Shown here: positions 1 to 10,144 of the stretch, in pieces
How positions within the stretch are numbered: position 1 is the first letter of the stretch
Layout of the letters: each line of letters opens with the position of its first letter
DNA from: a virus
Taxonomy: Duplodnaviria; Heunggongvirae; Uroviricota; Caudoviricetes
Strand: one strand, 5' to 3'
Virus record (IMG/VR): IMGVR_UViG_2778261450_000002
Span: 1-14,328 of that record
Length of the DNA: 14,328 nucleotides
Program-made: the position numbers and the translations under genes
Notes under the pieces: model-generated
The model's database searches: none
Told to the model about the DNA's origin: nothing
What the model saw: only the letters and a program-made list of their open reading frames with translations

Positions 1-1248
1 ATGGCACTGAATATTCCATTCAGAAATGCGTACTATCGTTTTGCATCCAGTTACTCATTTCTCTTTTTTATTTCCTGGTCGCTGTGGTGGTCGTTATACG
101 CTATTTGGCTGAAAGGACATCTAGGGTTGACAGGGACGGAATTAGGTACACTTTATTCGGTCAACCAGTTTACCAGCATTCTATTTATGATGTTCTACGG
201 CATCGTTCAGGATAAACTCGGTCTGAAGAAACCGCTCATCTGGTGTATGAGTTTCATCCTGGTCTTGACCGGACCGTTTATGATTTACGTTTATGAACCG
301 TTACTGCAAAGCAATTTTTCTGTAGGTCTAATTCTGGGGGCGCTATTTTTTGGCTTGGGGTATCTGGCGGGATGCGGTTTGCTTGATAGCTTCACCGAAA
401 AAATGGCGCGAAATTTTCATTTCGAATATGGAACAGCGCGCGCCTGGGGATCTTTTGGCTATGCTATTGGCGCGTTCTTTGCCGGCATATTTTTTAGTAT
501 CAGTCCCCATATCAACTTCTGGTTGGTCTCGCTATTTGGCGCTGTATTTATGATGATCAACATGCGTTTTAAAGATAAGGATCACCAGTGCGTAGCGGCA
601 GATGCGGGAGGGGTAAAAAAAGAGGATTTTATCGCAGTTTTCAAGGATCGAAACTTCTGGGTTTTCGTCATATTTATTGTGGGGACGTGGTCTTTCTATA
701 ACATTTTTGATCAACAACTTTTTCCTGTCTTTTATGCAGGTTTATTCGAATCACACGATGTAGGAACGCGCCTGTATGGTTATCTCAACTCATTCCAGGT
801 GGTACTCGAAGCGCTGTGCATGGCGATTATTCCTTTCTTTGTGAATCGGGTAGGGCCAAAAAATGCATTACTTATCGGAGTTGTGATTATGGCGTTGCGT
901 ATCCTTTCCTGCGCGCTGTTCGTTAACCCCTGGATTATTTCATTAGTGAAGTTGTTACATGCCATTGAGGTTCCACTTTGTGTCATATCCGTCTTCAAAT
1001 ACAGCGTGGCAAACTTTGATAAGCGCCTGTCGTCGACGATCTTTCTGATTGGTTTTCAAATTGCCAGTTCGCTTGGGATTGTGCTGCTTTCAACGCCGAC
1101 TGGGATACTCTTTGACCACGCAGGCTACCAGACAGTTTTCTTCGCAATTTCGGGTATTGTCTGCCTGATGTTGCTATTTGGCATTTTCTTCTTGAGTAAA
1201 AAACGCGAGCAAATAGTTATGGAAACGCCTGTACCTTCAGCAATATAG
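1..1248 (+). CDS. cscB: LacY-family oligosaccharide:H+ symporter (MFS), probably sucrose permease; flanks the prophage
   Basis: 415-aa ORF from ATG at 1 to TAG at 1246-1248. Hydrophobic throughout, with LacY-like blocks (GIVQDKLGLKKPLIW, FEYGTARAWGSFGYAIG, PKNALLIGVVIMALRIL, EVPLCVISVFKYSV). Length and N-terminus match my recollection of E. coli CscB; the symbol is from memory and not verified. Confidence 0.8.
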   Translation: MALNIPFRNAYYRFASSYSFLFFISWSLWWSLYAIWLKGHLGLTGTELGTLYSVNQFTSILFMMFYGIVQDKLGLKKPLIWCMSFILVLTGPFMIYVYEPLLQSNFSVGLILGALFFGLGYLAGCGLLDSFTEKMARNFHFEYGTARAWGSFGYAIGAFFAGIFFSISPHINFWLVSLFGAVFMMINMRFKDKDHQCVAADAGGVKKEDFIAVFKDRNFWVFVIFIVGTWSFYNIFDQQLFPVFYAGLFESHDVGTRLYGYLNSFQVVLEALCMAIIPFFVNRVGPKNALLIGVVIMALRILSCALFVNPWIISLVKLLHAIEVPLCVISVFKYSVANFDKRLSSTIFLIGFQIASSLGIVLLSTPTGILFDHAGYQTVFFAISGIVCLMLLFGIFFLSKKREQIVMETPVPSAI

Positions 1249-1775: not shown

Positions 1776-1976
1776 TTACCCATTGGCGCGGCTTAAGAGC
1801 TTATTTTTGAATTCACAATGGTCACGATATAACCATCTTGCTCGCCCGTGGATAACTTTGGCTTTTGGCAGGTCGCCGGACTTAATCCGGTCATAGATGA
1901 AGGTCTTACCGAAGCCAGTATCAGCCATGATGAATTTCAAATCAACCAGTGAATCAGGTTGTAGTTCGTGTTGCAT
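1776..1976 (-). CDS. AlpA/Xis-family excisionase-like HTH DNA-binding protein
   Basis: 66 aa, ATG at 1976-1974 preceded by a GGAGA Shine-Dalgarno. Sequence (…LKFIMADTGFGKTFIYDRIKSGDLPKAKVIHGRARWLYRDHCEF…) fits the AlpA/excisionase winged-helix pattern. No integrase ORF follows it. Confidence 0.6.
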   Translation of the reverse strand: MQHELQPDSLVDLKFIMADTGFGKTFIYDRIKSGDLPKAKVIHGRARWLYRDHCEFKNKLLSRANG

Positions 1977-4630: not shown

Positions 4631-4809
4631 TTCTTCCCACTCCGGCACATCGCATTCAGATATTTGTTTTGATTTACTGACGGAAAAGAATTTCTCTTAA
4701 GTAATTCCTCTCTCGATGGCATTGGCTTTACGCGTTGGCGAATAATCATTTCTGCAGGAAGAATGCCGGGGTTGTATGCAAGTCCTCTCATGGTAAATTC
4801 CTCAGTCAT
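4627..4809 (-). CDS. small hypothetical protein (60 aa)
   Basis: ATG at 4809-4807 lies 2 nt before the TGA of the upstream gene (short overlap). Reads [60 protein letters not shown]. Confidence 0.45.
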
Positions 4810-5098
4810 TACTGATAGCGCCATAGCGTGAGCGGTAATTACGCAGGCGCGGGTCGATATATTCAGGGAAGTGGGTATATGTGGCTTTACGGAATGGTCG
4901 GATTGATGTCTGGTAAATTCGCTCTCGTTCTTCTTTCTCTGCAAGCCATATACAGTGGCGAAATTCCTTTTCCTCTTTCGTTTCCTGTGGTAGCGACATT
5001 ATCCGATCGTAGTTTTTTCTGAATTTATCCAGCACCTCCGATACGGATTTGCCGGAACAGCGGCGCGGGTCATCCGCACCATACAAAGGCGCTGGCAT
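4802..5098 (-). CDS. hypothetical phage protein (98 aa, basic)
   Basis: ATG at 5098-5096 with AGGAGA 5 nt upstream. No family recognised. Confidence 0.6.
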
Positions 5099-5114
5099 GT
5101 TTTTCTCCTGTTTA

Positions 5115-5663
5115 TTATTTAGCTAACTTTTTCCAGATCGCTGAAACGTATTTGGCTTGGTGGATGGCATCATCAAGCGCGTTGTGGCGAGTTCCTTTGA
5201 ATGGCATATCTCGCTTAGGGTCGAATCCTATTACCTTTCCAAGCTCGACGATTGTTCTTACGTCGCGGTCATTCCACCACTGCCACGGAACTGGCTGCCC
5301 TGTCAGCGAATAACTGTTTCGGAGAATAACGCAGTCAAATGATGCTCCATTCCCCCAAACCTGAACGAATTTGTGGTTAGCGTTCTTTATGATGAATTCA
5401 GATAACCATGAAAGAGCCGTTGAAAGCTCCTGAGTGTTGCTGGTTAGCGATTTTCTGGCTTCTTCACTCTGTTCCAGCCACCATAAAATCGTTGAAGCGT
5501 CAGGACGCGCCCGATATCGCATTGATGACTCAAGCGAGATATTTACCGAGAACTCTTCTCCTGTTTCTCCGGTATTCGGTTCAAAGAATACCGCCCCAAT
5601 AGAAATAACTGGCGCGTATGGCCCGTTGCCCATTGTTTCAAGGTCAACCATCAAGTGATTCAT
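5115..5663 (-). CDS. DEDDh-family 3'-5' exonuclease (DnaQ-like fold)
   Basis: 182 aa with Exo I (MVDLETMG), Exo II (WGNGASFDCVIL) and Exo III (HNALDDAIHQAKY) motifs. AAGGA RBS upstream of the ATG. Confidence 0.8.
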   Translation of the reverse strand: MNHLMVDLETMGNGPYAPVISIGAVFFEPNTGETGEEFSVNISLESSMRYRARPDASTILWWLEQSEEARKSLTSNTQELSTALSWLSEFIIKNANHKFVQVWGNGASFDCVILRNSYSLTGQPVPWQWWNDRDVRTIVELGKVIGFDPKRDMPFKGTRHNALDDAIHQAKYVSAIWKKLAK

Positions 5664-5671
5664 GTAAGTCC

Positions 5672-6187
5672 TTAAATTGCGTGAATAGCGTGACGAGGGA
5701 AAGGGAGAGTTACTGGTGCAAAGGGGATATCGTCGTCAAAATCCATAGGTGGTTCGCTGTGATTTACCTGCTTCTGAGGCTGCTGTTTTTGTTGCTGACC
5801 GTTATTTCGCTGAGGTGAAGACTGTTCATTGCCTCCTTGCTTGCCACCAAGCATTTGCATGGTTCCACCAACGCCCACGATAACTTCGGTAGTGAACCGA
5901 TCCTGTCCACTTTGATCCTGCCATTTTCTTGTCCGCAATTTGCCTTCAAGATAAACCTCAGAGCCTTTTCGCAGATATTCGCTGGCAATTTCTGCCAGTT
6001 TCCCGCTCATTACCACGCGGTGCCACTCCGTCTGCTCCTTTTGCTCTCCAGTTTGCTTATCACGCCATTGTTCTGACGTAGCAACTGTAAGGTTTGCAAA
6101 TGCCGTTCCTGATGGTGAATATCTGATTTCTGGATCATGCCCAAGGCGACCAATAATGATCACCTTATTTACGCCTCTGCTTGCCAT
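5672..6187 (-). CDS. ssb: single-stranded DNA-binding protein with a 15-residue extension beyond the DDDIPF tail
   Basis: N-terminal OB-fold region is near-identical in pattern to E. coli SSB (MASRGVNKV…TEWHRVV…[15 protein letters not shown]…[12 protein letters not shown]…TTEV), followed by a Gly/Gln-rich linker and [10 protein letters not shown]. The ORF then continues [15 protein letters not shown] before TAA. Confidence 0.9.
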
Positions 6188-6895
6188 TTATGCCGCCTGT
6201 TTTAGTTCGTTAACTCTGATGTTCATTACCTGAACGCATTTAGCCTGCGCCTCCTCGTTGCCAGCCATTAATTGCCAGTCACGCTGATAACGCTCGATGA
6301 GTTTTTCCTTGTCAGTTTCTGTCGATGCATAATCGCTGAAGTCTTTCAGGATTTGTTCGCAGTCAACCGATGGAGATTTCTGGTTGGTATTTTCTGGTGA
6401 TGGTTGATTGCCAGATGCTGGCATTGCCCATCCCGGCAGCGATGGAGGGGACCAGTAAAATCCTGTTCCATCTTTCAGTTTTGCCCTGTGCCATCCCTGC
6501 TTTTTATCGAGAGATGTTTGTGCGAAACCTTCCTCAAGGTTATACAGATACCGACCGATTCCCCACTGAACGGCAGCGCGCTTCATTGCACCGGAACGAC
6601 CACCTTTGACGGCTTCTACCTGCGTGTTTTCAGCAGCATCCCATTTGGTTACCCATTCGGAATCAATCTTTATTGATATGCCGCATTCAACGCCGCCGTT
6701 GTTGGGAATATCGCGGTATTCATTGCGCCATCCTGCTTTGCCACAAACATCGTCCAGGCGTTTCATGATTGCCCGGTTCGTTACATAAGCCAGCACCATA
6801 GCCCACACTTTGCCATCGCGTGTTTTACCGCTTTGCTGTATTCGCCATTCGATATCTTCAGGGCTGAATGGCTCATCGAATTTATTCAAATCCAT
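6188..6895 (-). CDS. Rad52-like single-strand annealing protein (Sak-type phage recombinase)
   Basis: 235 aa with the Rad52/Sak pattern (…GKVWAMVLAYVTNRAIMKRLDDVCGKAGWRNEY…WDAAENTQVEAVKGGRSGAMKRAAVQWGIGRYLY…). Sits immediately upstream of ssb. Confidence 0.75.
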   Translation of the reverse strand: MDLNKFDEPFSPEDIEWRIQQSGKTRDGKVWAMVLAYVTNRAIMKRLDDVCGKAGWRNEYRDIPNNGGVECGISIKIDSEWVTKWDAAENTQVEAVKGGRSGAMKRAAVQWGIGRYLYNLEEGFAQTSLDKKQGWHRAKLKDGTGFYWSPPSLPGWAMPASGNQPSPENTNQKSPSVDCEQILKDFSDYASTETDKEKLIERYQRDWQLMAGNEEAQAKCVQVMNIRVNELKQAA

Positions 6896-6994: not shown

Positions 6995-7153
6995 TTATGG
7001 CGATACCAGAGAGCTTTCTGCGTGTACATGCGTCTCTGTAACTTGCTCTCCTTCACTGTGGTTGCAAGTGACATGAATATCTCCTTCGTTACCGATTAAT
7101 TCTTTCATCTGACGAATGAATTCTTCGTCTGACCAGTTATCTGTAAAATTCAT
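6995..7153 (-). CDS. small hypothetical protein (52 aa) in the kil-like position
   Basis: ATG at 7153-7151 overlaps the TGA of the cIII-like ORF (ATGA). Reads MNFTDNWSDEEFIRQMKELIGNEGDIHVTCNHSEGEQVTETHVHAESSLVSP. Function not recognised. Confidence 0.4.
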   Translation of the reverse strand: MNFTDNWSDEEFIRQMKELIGNEGDIHVTCNHSEGEQVTETHVHAESSLVSP

Positions 7154-7320
7154 GGACGGCCTTGTTGTTTCAAAATATCCCAAAGCTTTTCGAGCAAACT
7201 TTTCATTCTTGGTTGTTTAAAGTCTGCTCCGGTTAAAATATTTTTTCGTGAATGCTGTACCGATAAAATCGGGTTGAAAGGGCGAACCGATGCCGCCCCT
7301 GCAATAGCGAACTGTTGCAT
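7150..7320 (-). CDS. cIII: CIII-like protein (putative FtsH inhibitor that stabilises CII)
   Basis: 56 aa, hand-translated as MQQFAIAGAASVRPFNPILSVQHSRKNILTGADFKQPRMKSLLEKLWDILKQQGRP. Resembles lambda CIII (MQYAIAGW… and …LIDILNQPG). AAGGAG RBS 6 nt upstream. Below the ORF-track length cutoff. Confidence 0.55.
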   Translation of the reverse strand: MQQFAIAGAASVRPFNPILSVQHSRKNILTGADFKQPRMKSLLEKLWDILKQQGRP

Positions 7321-7395
7321 AGGATGCTCCTTCTGTTTGATTGCATAACGAAAACGCCTCTCGTGAAGCGTTATTGGTATGCGGTAAAGCCGCGC

Positions 7396-7707
7396 TTAGG
7401 CGGCTGATGTTTCTTCTTTCAGGCTTTCGAGATATTTACGTGGGTCGTCGTAACATTGGCATTCGCTGTACCAATCCACCCAGCGATCAGTAAGCCCCAT
7501 CTCTGATAAATCTTCATCGGTAAGGCTCTCATCCCACATCTCAAGGCCGTTAGCATTGCAGTAATCAGGCTTGATGTTGTTGTCATACTGAAAGGCGTCA
7601 TAATCAGCCAGTGCGTCCATCAGGCGAACACCCTCTTCAACACTTGCCACTTCTACAATGAACGGCTTCATAGGTACTTGCGGGATATGCCAGACACGTA
7701 ATTTCAT
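7396..7707 (-). CDS. acidic hypothetical protein (103 aa, about 22% Asp+Glu)
   Basis: ATG at 7707-7705 with GGAGG 5 nt upstream, directly after a terminator. The longer ORF-track start at 7761 would lie inside that terminator. Confidence 0.6.
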   Translation of the reverse strand: MKLRVWHIPQVPMKPFIVEVASVEEGVRLMDALADYDAFQYDNNIKPDYCNANGLEMWDESLTDEDLSEMGLTDRWVDWYSECQCYDDPRKYLESLKEETSAA

Positions 7708-7719
7708 ATATCCTCCGTC

Positions 7720-7748
7720 AAAAAAATTGCCCTCACATTGGAGGGCAA
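7720..7748 (-). terminator. intrinsic terminator in the leftward operon (tL1-like position)
   Basis: Minus strand: TTGCCCTC-CAATGT-GAGGGCAA followed by TTTTTTT. Confidence 0.6.
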
Positions 7749-7808
7749 AGAAGATTTCCAATAATCAGAACAAGTCGGCTCCTGTTTAGTTACGAGCGAC
7801 ATTGCTCC

Positions 7809-7836
7809 GTGTATTCACTCGTTGGAATGAATACAC
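7809..7836. other. 9-bp perfect inverted repeat (GTGTATTCA / TGAATACAC) with 10-nt loop, downstream of ral
   Basis: Exact reverse-complement arms at 7809-7817 and 7828-7836. Could be an RNA stem-loop or a protein-binding palindrome; no T-run follows. Confidence 0.3.
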
Positions 7837-7863
7837 AGTGCAGTGTTTATTCTGTTGTTTATG

Positions 7864-7894
7864 CCAAAAATAAAGGCCACCATCAGGCAGCCTT
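7864..7894 (-). terminator. intrinsic terminator with the ral stop codon in the loop
   Basis: Minus strand: AAGGCTGCC-TGAT-GGTGGCCTT (9 bp including two G-U pairs) then TATTTTTGG. Same architecture as the terminator at 2468-2492. Confidence 0.45.
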
Positions 7895-8083
7895 GTTGTT
7901 CTGTTTACCAAGTTCTCTGGCAATCATTGCCGTCGTTCGTATTGCCCATTTATCGACATATTTCCCATCCTCCATTACAGGGAACATTTCTTCAGGCTTA
8001 ACCATGCATTCCGATTGAAGCTTGCATCCATTGCATCGCTTGAATTGTCCACACCATTGATTTTTATCAATAGTCGTAGTCAT
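7883..8083 (-). CDS. ral: Ral-like restriction alleviation protein (66 aa)
   Basis: Sits immediately left of N as ral does in lambda. Has a Cys cluster (C-x5-C-x2-C-x5-C). The lambda Ral match (MTTTIDKNQW…) is recalled from memory, not aligned. Confidence 0.6.
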   Translation of the reverse strand: MTTTIDKNQWCGQFKRCNGCKLQSECMVKPEEMFPVMEDGKYVDKWAIRTTAMIARELGKQNNKAA

Positions 8084-8153
8084 AAGGATAGTCCTGGTAT
8101 TGTTCCATCACATCCTGCGGATGCTCTTCGAACTCTTCAAATTCTTCTTCCAT
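8067..8153 (-). CDS. 28-aa highly acidic micro-ORF between N and ral
   Basis: ATG at 8153-8151 preceded by GAGGTG, hand-translated as MEEEFEEFEEHPQDVMEQYQDYPYDYDY. Overlaps the ral start by 17 nt. Too short to call with confidence. Confidence 0.3.
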   Translation of the reverse strand: MEEEFEEFEEHPQDVMEQYQDYPYDYDY

Positions 8154-8161
8154 ATATCACC

Positions 8162-8488
8162 TCAAATAAGTGGTTTGCTGCCTAATTTCATTTTCTGGCG
8201 ACCAACACAAGTCAACCCCATTTCACTACGTGGCTTGCTGTACCATGTGCGCTGATTCTTGCGTTCAATACGTTGCAGGTTGCTTTCAATCTGTTCGTGG
8301 TATTCAGCCAGCACTGTAAGGTCTATCGGATTCAGTGCGCTTTCTACTCGTGATTTCGGTTTGCGATTCAGCGAGAGAATAGGGCGGTTAACTGGTTTTG
8401 CGCTTACCCCAACCAACAGGGGATTTGCTGCTTTCCATTGAGCCTGTTTCTCTGCGCGACGTTCGCGGCGGCGTGTTTGTGCATCCAT
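8162..8488 (-). CDS. N: antitermination protein N (lambda type)
   Basis: 108 aa from the ATG at 8488-8486: MDAQTRRRERRAEKQAQWKAANPLLVGVSAKPVNRPILSLNRKPKSRV…, including the arginine-rich RNA-binding motif. The ORF-track start at 8578 would be a spurious 30-aa extension. Confidence 0.9.
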   Translation of the reverse strand: MDAQTRRRERRAEKQAQWKAANPLLVGVSAKPVNRPILSLNRKPKSRVESALNPIDLTVLAEYHEQIESNLQRIERKNQRTWYSKPRSEMGLTCVGRQKMKLGSKPLI

Positions 8489-8598
8489 CTGGATTCTCCT
8501 GTCAGTTAGCTTTGAGTAACGCGCCGTGATGCTTATCTCCACGGTTGCTGTCTTGCAGCTGCATTTCGCGCTACTCAAAGCCTTCTGCTTTGAATGCT

Positions 8599-8629
8599 GC
8601 CCTTCTTCAGGGCTTAATTTTTAAGAGCA
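8599..8629 (-). promoter_or_regulatory. nutL (boxA TGCTCTTA and boxB GCCCTGAAGAAGGGC)
   Basis: Minus strand reads GATGCTCTTAAAAATTAAGCCCTGAAGAAGGGCAGCATTCAAAGCAGAAGG, matching the lambda nutL arrangement. Lies between pL and N. Confidence 0.8.

Positions 8630-8791: not shown

Positions 8792-10144
<1,353 letters not shown>

Follow-up and report, generated by a model that had tools for sequence, protein, structure and literature searches.

Gene 17 and orf28 counterparts in the leftward early operon of a lambda/P22-mosaic prophage

Several small, very acidic proteins that phages or plasmids make early counter host defenses, among them Ocr (T7 gp0.3), ArdA, and T7 gp5.9. Ocr is an all-helical dimer. 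Even shorter phage products can act on restriction enzymes: with just 26 residues, the peptide T4 Stp acts on EcoprrI, a type Ic enzyme. For phage P22, the RefSeq record states that gene 17 "allows growth on phage Fels2 lysogen," and two papers (PMC6486243 and PMC9409062), citing Semerjian et al. 1989, give gene 17 the same function, growth on Fels-2 lysogens. The record of lambda orf28 is thinner. A literature search returned only strain names and one CRISPRi entry of "non-essential," with no translation data. In that CRISPRi work, knockdown of orf28 caused no plaque defect, in a host without type I restriction.

We analyzed a window of 14,328 nucleotides of tailed-phage (Caudoviricetes) DNA from a prophage related to both lambda and P22. 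A first-pass annotation had picked out two strongly acidic proteins flanking the restriction alleviation gene ral as candidate DNA mimics. We consider it probable that they are instead ordinary genes, already catalogued, that a lambda/P22-mosaic prophage carries in its leftward early (PL) operon, namely, a gene 17 orthologue and orf28, acting through the mechanisms proposed below.

Identity and operon position of the gene 17 orthologue

The larger acidic ORF has 103 codons and lies on the minus strand at 7396 to 7707. Its composition is as first described: Asp and Glu make up 22.3% of the residues, and from the translation we computed a net charge of -14 and a pI of 4.14. Residues 59 to 74 form the acidic run DESLTDEDLSEMGLTD. 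The strong ribosome-binding site was also found as claimed, with GGAGG 4 nt ahead of the ATG. The product matched the Pfam family PF17420 (GP17) with an E value of 7.3e-56 and 186.8 bits (cutoff, 25), residues 1 to 98 aligning with profile positions 1 to 98 of 98. It also matched PHROG phrog_1510 (E, 5.7e-58) and is 88% identical to P22 gp17 over 103 of 103 residues. NCBIfam and PADLOC profile searches gave no match for gp17, and comparison with the sequences of solved structures returned only chance matches to PPR repeats, with E values above 0.1. On this evidence, which is that of sequence, we identify the ORF at 7396 to 7707 as the orthologue of Salmonella phage P22 gene 17.

The surroundings of the gene agree with those in P22. 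The order ral, 17, c3, recombination genes, abc2 is common to the two, the proteins are of equal length, and in both cases the gene fills the PL slot downstream of ral and directly upstream of cIII/c3. Both copies also have a terminator-like signal at the 3' end. In the prophage, the terminator scan placed a hairpin directly past the gene 17 stop (7353 to 7372, minus strand), and in the P22 record an annotated terminator overlaps the gene 17 3' end. However, orf78 and orf87 separate ral from gene 17 in P22, whereas the prophage has about 175 nt and two terminator-like hairpins in this interval.

The scan bore out the earlier statement that the gene follows a terminator. An intrinsic-terminator-like hairpin with a T-run (TTGCCCTCCAATGTGAGGGCAA then TTTTTTTGAC) sits at 7748 to 7727 (minus strand), in the interval from ral to gene 17. 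Terminator hairpins thus flank gene 17, and the scan found no promoter-like site upstream of it. A search of the whole window against Rfam gave zero matches. The PL operon begins with the gene for antiterminator N, on the minus strand at 8162 to 8488 (PF11438; E, 1.6e-26; phrog_271), and this gene sets the context in which orf28, ral, and gene 17 are transcribed. We propose that PL transcription would reach gene 17 only once N-modified RNA polymerase passes the terminator at 7748 to 7727.

Charge, fold, and conservation of gp17

It had been proposed that both acidic proteins are DNA mimics of the Ocr, ArdA, or gp5.9 kind, occupying the DNA-binding sites of type I or type III restriction enzymes or of RecBCD. 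Several observations are in keeping with this. gp17 and orf28 share the high net negative charge of Ocr and ArdA (-14 and -12, respectively). The acidity is conserved across the gp17 family, in which the mean net charge is -11.5 to -13.5. Both genes belong to the early operon, gp17 is already known as a counter-defense gene, and orf28 is physically tied to ral. Acidity is, however, common in the window, where two other ORFs have a net charge of -14 or below, and the more specific signs of mimicry were not found. No HMM match to any mimic family was obtained, GP17 being the only Pfam match for the 103-aa protein at E values up to 0.1. The acidic run, which had been read as a mark of mimicry, falls in part within an insertion loop absent from about 63% of the family members. 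Twelve residues are invariant among 68 gp17 homologues; aromatic and polar residues predominate among them (P, Q, Y, F, K, N, and W), and they form no ordered acid array.

Structure prediction, which had been suggested as a check, led to the same view. The AF2 model of gp17 is confident (pLDDT, 93.4; pTM, 0.82) and has an alpha/beta fold, without the B-DNA-like array of acidic side chains that characterizes the folds of Ocr and ArdA. Thus, gp17 differs from Ocr, ArdA, and gp5.9 in predicted fold as well as in sequence family. Searches of PDB and BFVD with the model gave no significant match outside the gp17 family. The fold of ERH (enhancer of rudimentary homologue) scored below significance, at 3 to 9% identity, and we claim no homology. 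Because the fold has no informative structural neighbor, any binding mechanism for gp17 has to be drawn from conservation.

Some members of the family are longer than gp17. In ten of them, the fused domains were Phage_gp49_66 and DUF6166, which are uncharacterized small phage domains, and the same scan gave a weak match to the RNA polymerase alpha subunit C-terminal domain. In two further long members, an N-terminal extension looked Walker-A-like by eye. None of these features was interpretable.

The argument from recombination fared no better. The first-pass annotation had held that the prophage carries no recognizable Gam-like RecBCD inhibitor. Abc2 is in fact encoded on the minus strand at 4802 to 5098. 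It matches PF11043, "anti-RecBCD protein 2," with an E value of 2.9e-61, is 92% identical to P22 Abc2, and has a homologue in a related E. coli prophage that is annotated "phage anti-RecBCD protein." Because Abc2 is encoded in the prophage, the argument from a missing inhibitor fails; RecBCD inhibition is already supplied. The two acidic ORFs themselves gave no Pfam or PHROG match to the RecBCD inhibitors Gam, Abc2, and gp5.9.

The position of gp17 beside ral had likewise been taken as a functional hint. Gene 17 follows a lambda-type ral in just 2 of 80 loci; its adjacency to ral is incidental, and the association is not conserved. In addition, the phenotype on record for gene 17 concerns a P2-like prophage and not a restriction system. 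We therefore regard DNA mimicry by the two proteins as quite improbable. The broader idea that gp17 acts against a defense did stand, since P22 gene 17 permits growth on Fels-2 lysogens, while the arguments specific to mimicry fell away.

Counter-defense by gp17 and its candidate target

In Pfam, PHROGs, and many GenBank records, gp17 is called a "superinfection exclusion protein," which would make it a prophage product that keeps other phages out. The genetics point in the other direction. According to the P22 record, and to the papers citing the original genetics, gene 17 lets P22 escape exclusion by Fels-2. Moreover, the gene belongs to the PL operon, which is repressed, and has a terminator ahead of it and no promoter-like site of its own, and homologues are common in strictly virulent phages (N4-like phages and Kuttervirus). 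That gp17 excludes other phages is therefore the reading to which we give the least credence. Gene 17 lets P22 grow despite a resident Fels-2; therefore, it encodes a counter-defense protein and not an exclusion protein. Thus, gp17 is a genetically defined counter-defense (counter-exclusion) factor with a phenotype known from P22, and its database name is a misnomer that has the direction wrong. The family comprises 1199 clusters at 50% identity, with homologues in virulent N4-like, Kuttervirus, and Bacillus SPO1-like phages, and its presence in virulent phages suits an anti-defense role rather than a prophage-protective one.

What gp17 acts on may be sought in Fels-2. The Fels-2 protein STM2723.1 matched the PADLOC model AbiU with an E value of 2.7e-112 and the Pfam family AIPR with an E value of 8.8e-43. 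Among the 15 Fels-2 nonstructural ORFs scanned, the only other match to a defense model was an orphan methyltransferase. The AbiU/AIPR gene occupies an accessory-gene site adjoining the portal gene, and abiU has been noted in Fels-2 before (PMC3853940). We suggest that gp17 would bind and neutralize a prophage-encoded abortive infection protein, for which the Fels-2 AbiU/AIPR protein is the best candidate. The pattern of conservation points to a likely contact patch made up of P9-Q10, Y36-D37-x-F39-Q40, K46-P47-D48-Y49-x-N51, and W76-x-D78-W79, and the negative charge found throughout the family could assist this contact. In a literature search, we found no paper naming the determinant through which Fels-2 excludes P22 17- phage, and STM2726 and further functionally unassigned Fels-2 ORFs stay as alternative candidates. 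P22 has a Salmonella host, whereas the prophage has an Escherichia/Shigella-type host; the natural target of gp17 is therefore not necessarily Fels-2 itself.

A different target would be a nucleotide immune signal, which gp17 would sequester or destroy in the manner of the sponges Tad1, Tad2, Acb2, Lockin, and Sequestin. gp17 is small and widespread in unrelated phages, and its conserved aromatic and polar residues could line a pocket. However, no solved sponge appeared among the PDB or BFVD fold matches, and the scan of Fels-2 revealed no signaling-type defense system. The structure-guided screen for sponges sought positively charged pockets, whereas gp17 is strongly acidic, and the text of the Sequestin/Lockin preprint makes no mention of gp17, P22, or PF17420. 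We consider a sponge very unlikely. If gp17 instead neutralizes the Fels-2 protein, it may be the first inhibitor to be recognized for abortive infection of the AbiU/AIPR type, whatever the reading of orf28.

Conservation of orf28 and its linkage to ral

The second acidic ORF, of 28 codons on the minus strand at 8067 to 8153 (MEEEFEEFEEHPQDVMEQYQDYPYDYDY), was confirmed as described, with an acidic and aromatic product and a 3' end that overlaps the start of ral by 17 nt. Asp and Glu account for 43% of the residues and aromatic residues for 25%; there are no basic residues, and the net charge is -12. The peptide is identical to that of lambda orf28 (lambdap47, NP_040623) in 28 of 28 residues (100%) and matches phrog_16060 (E, 7e-19). 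It had no match in Pfam at E values up to 0.1 or in the NCBIfam and PADLOC profile searches. The identity of ral also held up: it encodes 66 aa at 7883 to 8083 on the minus strand (PF11058; E, 1.6e-48; phrog_1055) and forms the downstream half of what we describe as an orf28-ral cassette.

Lambda has both the same orf28 peptide and the same 17-nt overlap with ral. The two phages differ upstream. In lambda the sieB side precedes orf28, whereas in the prophage sieB is absent and orf28 comes right after the N stop. The TGA of N here falls inside the orf28 ribosome-binding site, a Shine-Dalgarno-like GAGGTG at 8156 to 8164 on the minus strand (TGAGGTGAT). Every lineage keeps this purine-rich motif, although farther upstream the DNA diverges. 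Whether the upstream neighbor is N, the sieB side, or gene 24, the mosaic junction falls immediately before the motif.

All 80 of the 80 lambda-type ral loci have an intact orf28, and its common polymorphisms fall at synonymous third positions. P22-like phages keep it as well, unannotated and overlapping the start of ral, and its homologues have the same overlap in loci of four further genera, Providencia, Proteus, Erwinia, and Pantoea. Even in loci where Ral is just 68 to 79% identical, an acidic ORF of 22 to 30 codons lies over the ral ATG. The pN/pS ratio is 0.00 to 0.31 in 21 of 21 pairs, with only about 7 to 8 synonymous sites per pair and several pS values saturated. By frame arithmetic, the variable sites of orf28 would be second codon positions of an opposite-strand ORF. 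The conserved peptide motif is EEF-D/E-E-HP-x-D-x-M-x-QYQDY-x-Y. The intactness of orf28 across ral loci and other genera, together with these ratios, therefore marks it as a real micro-gene. From its sequence conservation, we conclude that orf28 genuinely codes for protein, as a micro-gene with its own putative ribosome-binding site that forms a fixed cassette with ral, and that its linkage to ral is strongly supported. Natural orf28-ral fusion proteins also occur.

This linkage could serve translation. Ribosomes that translate orf28 may be handed to the ral start, a form of translational coupling. In its extreme form, orf28 would be a translated leader only, allowing re-initiation at the ral ATG or opening mRNA structure, with a functionless peptide. 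In every lineage the orf28 end still overlaps the ral ATG (by 11 to 17 nt), the ribosome-binding site of orf28 is good while ral has just AGGA inside orf28, and the orf28 stop and the opening codons of ral lie within a perfect hairpin, as a leader would have it. RNA folding at the junction is unexceptional (z = -1.7). However, a pure leader's sequence could drift freely, whereas orf28 shows purifying selection on the peptide upstream of the overlap, at the ratios given above. The segment HP-x-D-x-M-x-QYQDY survives across phages of Escherichia, Salmonella, Providencia, Proteus, Pantoea, and Erwinia although synonymous sites are saturated. A leader without a working peptide thus seems unlikely to us.

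Besides any coupling, the acidic and aromatic orf28 peptide may itself have a function, for which partnership with Ral, a basic and Cys-rich protein, is the most plausible form. It may act with or beside Ral on type I restriction-modification enzymes as a cofactor, a stabilizer, or a competitor resembling the phosphate backbone. When a natural orf28-ral fusion (P0270) was modeled with AF2, confidence was low (pLDDT, 62; pTM, 0.41), and the model gave no support for contact between the peptide and Ral. T4 Stp offers a precedent for a phage peptide of fewer than 30 residues that modulates a type I restriction enzyme, and this precedent makes a direct role of orf28 beside Ral conceivable. The resemblance is in kind only, as Stp and orf28 have no sequence relationship and we know of no acidic character in Stp. 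We tentatively suggest, with more doubt than confidence, that Ral, seen for 45 years as a one-protein system, is really a two-gene cassette in which orf28 is a functional microprotein and not a leader.

Both genes had already been annotated, as P22 gene 17 and lambda orf28, and in this respect the finding is largely ordinary; the linkage of orf28 to ral is modestly interesting. The analysis serves mainly as a correction: the proteins put forward as DNA mimics are those of P22 gene 17 and lambda orf28, the argument from RecBCD was wrong, and the label on gp17 is reversed. For gp17, this concerns a large family of some 1200 clusters (50% identity) in temperate and virulent phages of enterobacteria and Bacillus, with a counter-defense phenotype established by genetics but no solved structure and no recognizable fold relative. 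Its pairing with the Fels-2 AbiU/AIPR protein is a directly testable hypothesis. orf28 is among the few lambda ORFs without a function, and yet purifying selection acts on it, and in several genera it remains inseparably linked to ral. This selection and linkage justify an experiment in the best-studied phage.

The leftward operon and its acidic genes

The minus-strand region is the leftward (PL) early operon of a lambdoid prophage. In order of transcription, it carries the antiterminator gene N (8162-8488; PF11438), the 28-codon orf28 (8067-8153), ral (7883-8083; PF11058), the 103-codon gene 17 (7396-7707), cIII (7150-7320), a 52-aa ORF (6995-7153), and genes for a Rad52-type (Rad52/Rad22) annealing protein (6188-6895), SSB (5672-6187), an Rv2179c-like 3'-5' exonuclease (5115-5663), and Abc2 (4802-5098). 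A terminator-like hairpin with a T-run (7873-7894, minus strand) overlaps the ral stop codon, so there are two successive terminator-like sites between ral and gene 17, the second at 7748-7727 on the same strand. A further minus-strand hairpin separates gene 17 from cIII. The nearest phage records (HK542, Sf101, Sf6, HK544, and lambda) are 97-98% identical over parts of 7000-8600, and related prophages adjoin the csc sucrose genes in Escherichia coli chromosomes.

The first-pass annotation had proposed that two acidic proteins, the products of gene 17 and orf28, are candidate DNA-mimic or anti-restriction factors in a prophage without a recognisable Gam-like RecBCD inhibitor. We confirmed its coordinates, lengths, and sequences for both ORFs, which are encoded by the minus strand. 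Of the two products, the 103-aa protein is strongly acidic (22.3% Asp+Glu, net charge -14, pI 4.14); its ORF has a GGAGG ribosome-binding site 4 nt ahead and lies behind the terminator-like hairpin at 7748-7727, which carries a T-run. The 28-aa peptide is 43% Asp+Glu and 25% aromatic with no Lys or Arg, and its ORF overlaps ral by 17 nt. However, the prophage does carry a RecBCD inhibitor: Abc2 matches PF11043 (E 2.9e-61) and is 92% identical to P22 Abc2. Acidity alone is not distinctive, as two other ORFs in the window have net charges of -14 or lower.

We made further observations on the surrounding genes. The recombination module (4802-6895, minus strand) is complete and P22-style, but the Rad52/Rad22-type annealing protein replaces Erf; Abc1 is absent. 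A 158-aa ORF (8792-9268, minus strand) lies between N/nutL and the cI-like repressor gene (9193-9825), the position of rexAB in lambda. It has a signal-peptide-like stretch of 20 residues and no match in Pfam, NCBIfam, or PADLOC, and it could be a prophage-expressed moron or exclusion gene. A TorI-like excisionase ORF (1776-1976, minus strand) lies within about 500 bp after a cscB-like MFS transporter gene of the host (1-1248, plus strand), with no integrase ORF between them; a related E. coli prophage has the same arrangement plus a DUF4942 fragment. This prophage end (1-2000) seems to be cut short, and the element may therefore not be able to excise.

Gene 17 and exclusion by Fels-2

Every available test places the 103-aa protein in the family of P22 gene 17. 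It matches PF17420 ("GP17") end to end (E 7.3e-56) as well as phrog_1510, aligns with P22 gp17 at 88% identity across its full 103-aa length, and is 100% identical to the product of an unannotated gene of an Stx1a-converting phage. The P22 RefSeq record notes that gene 17 "allows growth on phage Fels2 lysogen," and two papers, citing Semerjian, Malloy, and Poteete (1989), state that gp17 is needed against the Fels-2 superinfection exclusion system (PMC6486243, PMC9409062). Thus, "superinfection exclusion protein," the product name in wide use, is a misnomer, because the gene defeats exclusion. Its location in the repressed PL operon, behind a terminator, fits this role; we found no promoter-like site for gene 17 itself. 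Also fitting a counter-exclusion function, homologues are common in virulent phages, including N4-like phages (N4 gp18, 65% identity), Kuttervirus, and Bacillus phage SBSphiC (41% identity).

Searching 1.84 billion representatives with a profile (E up to 0.001) gave 1,199 clusters of the family. In two members, P0050 (155 aa) and P0063 (159 aa), about 50 residues are added at the N terminus and include a Walker-A-like GxxxxGK[ST] motif; others are joined to Phage_gp49_66 or DUF6166 domains. Such arrangements may be genuine or may come from errors in gene calling.

AlphaFold2, with an alignment of 68 sequences, gave a confident model of gp17 (pLDDT 93.4, pTM 0.82) with the predicted order beta-beta-alpha-beta-alpha-beta-alpha. 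Foldseek against the PDB gave no match at E up to 0.001, the BFVD fold search found only gp17-family members, and the PDB-chain sequence search found only chance matches. Given these searches, gp17 as modelled has no solved relative and no likeness to any known DNA mimic. Invariant positions (P9, Q10, L33, Y36, D37, F39, Q40, K46, D48, Y49, N51, and W76) fall, by predicted secondary structure, behind strand 1, in the C-terminal half of helix 1 and the loop next to it, and in strand 76-78. Part of the acidic run that had drawn attention to the protein, namely residues 64-66, lies in a loop missing from 62-65% of aligned homologues. However, overall negative charge is family-wide: net charge averages -13.5 for the close set and -11.5 for the 50% representatives, and at least 90% of members have an acidic residue at positions E25, D37, D42, D48, D78, E82, D87, and D88.

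To look for a target, we scanned 15 nonstructural ORFs of Fels-2 (NC_010463, locus L093) against PADLOC. STM2723.1 (565 aa; L093 22639-24336, minus strand), labeled only "hypothetical protein" in the phage record, matched AbiU (E 2.7e-112) and Pfam AIPR (E 8.8e-43). It adjoins portal gene Q, at what we take to be an accessory-gene hotspot of P2-like phages. The sole other defence-model match among the 15 ORFs was a Dam-like orphan methyltransferase. AbiU was first described in Lactococcus, which would agree with gp17 relatives being found in Bacillus phages as well as in those of enterobacteria. Fels-2 has been reported to carry abiU, with function unknown (PMC3853940). From this evidence we propose that the AbiU/AIPR protein of Fels-2 is the target of gp17, which would neutralise this abortive-infection protein through direct binding. 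Alternatively, the target could be STM2726 (243 aa), a neighbour of STM2723.1 with no family match, or another Fels-2 ORF.

orf28 and ral as a unit

Lambda orf28 is a real gene, and by every available test the 28-aa ORF is that gene: its product is 100% identical to lambda NP_040623 (phrog_16060, unknown function). Beyond a CRISPRi study that scored it non-essential in a host without type I restriction (PMC10695390), we found it in the literature only as the deletion label "Delta-orf28-ral" (PMC2327257). orf28 is intact in all 80 IMG/VR loci with lambda-type ral. Variants present in more than one locus are all silent changes, affecting the third positions of codons P12 and P23; the singletons comprise three synonymous changes and five amino acid substitutions. 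The ORF is kept, though unannotated, in P22, BTP1, ST160, ST-35, and UPF_BP1. Ral is only 68-79% identical in loci of Providencia, Proteus, Erwinia, and Pantoea, yet each has an acidic ORF of 22-30 codons that overlaps the ral ATG behind a purine-rich ribosome-binding site, with the consensus EEF-[DE]-[EQ]-HP-x-D-[DV]-M-[SE]-QYQDY-[PR]-Y-[DE]-[YHF]-DY. Nei-Gojobori counts over codons upstream of the ral overlap gave pN/pS of 0.00-0.31 in 21 of 21 pairs, from few sites but in the same direction every time; synonymous sites are near saturation between genera. The antisense ORF 8015-8185 was ruled out as the constrained frame by frame arithmetic, since the variable sites are its second codon positions.

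The proposed association with ral held for orf28 and not for gene 17, which follows lambda-type ral in only 2 of the 80 loci (Ea10 does so in 45) and is an incidental neighbour. Homology between phages begins only about 20-25 nt ahead of the orf28 start codon, immediately 5' of its ribosome-binding site, and does so with N (here), the sieB side (lambda, P22), or gene 24 (ST160) as the upstream neighbour. Thus, orf28 and ral move as one cassette. They are also fused naturally. In phage ST-87 (L007, about 601-714), the P0270 cluster (76 member sequences), and P0274, loss of 1 nt from CAGGAC, itself the putative Shine-Dalgarno sequence of ral, yields an 89-aa protein in which orf28 codons 1-20 run on into full-length Ral. 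In P0280 an in-frame deletion joins orf28 to Ral residues 10-66.

Translational coupling of ral to orf28 would fit the conserved geometry of the overlap, and the conserved peptide sequence argues that the orf28 product itself would matter too. Given the basic character of Ral (pI 8.8) and its four conserved cysteines, it could plausibly have an acidic partner, and the orf28 peptide may be that partner. An AlphaFold2 model of the natural fusion P0270 had low confidence (pLDDT 62). At the RNA level, no Rfam family matches the region, and folding of the orf28/ral junction is unexceptional (z = -1.7). A perfect hairpin, AUUGAU-AAAA-AUCAAU (8057-8078, minus strand), covers the stop codon of orf28 together with ral codons 5-10, and the Proteus ral locus has a similar palindrome by eye; the hairpin may be relevant to coupling.

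Relation to known inhibitors

Neither sequence nor fold places the acidic ORFs with Ocr, ArdA, Gam, Abc2, gp5.9, or the nucleotide-sponge families, with which they share only being small, early, and acidic. The original interpretation is therefore partly supported: gp17 acts in counter-defence and orf28 is tied to ral, but the DNA-mimic, anti-restriction, and anti-RecBCD specifics are unsupported and one premise was false. Novelty is low because both genes were already known. The remaining value lies in a testable pairing of gp17 with AbiU and in having shown that orf28 and ral form a conserved two-gene unit.
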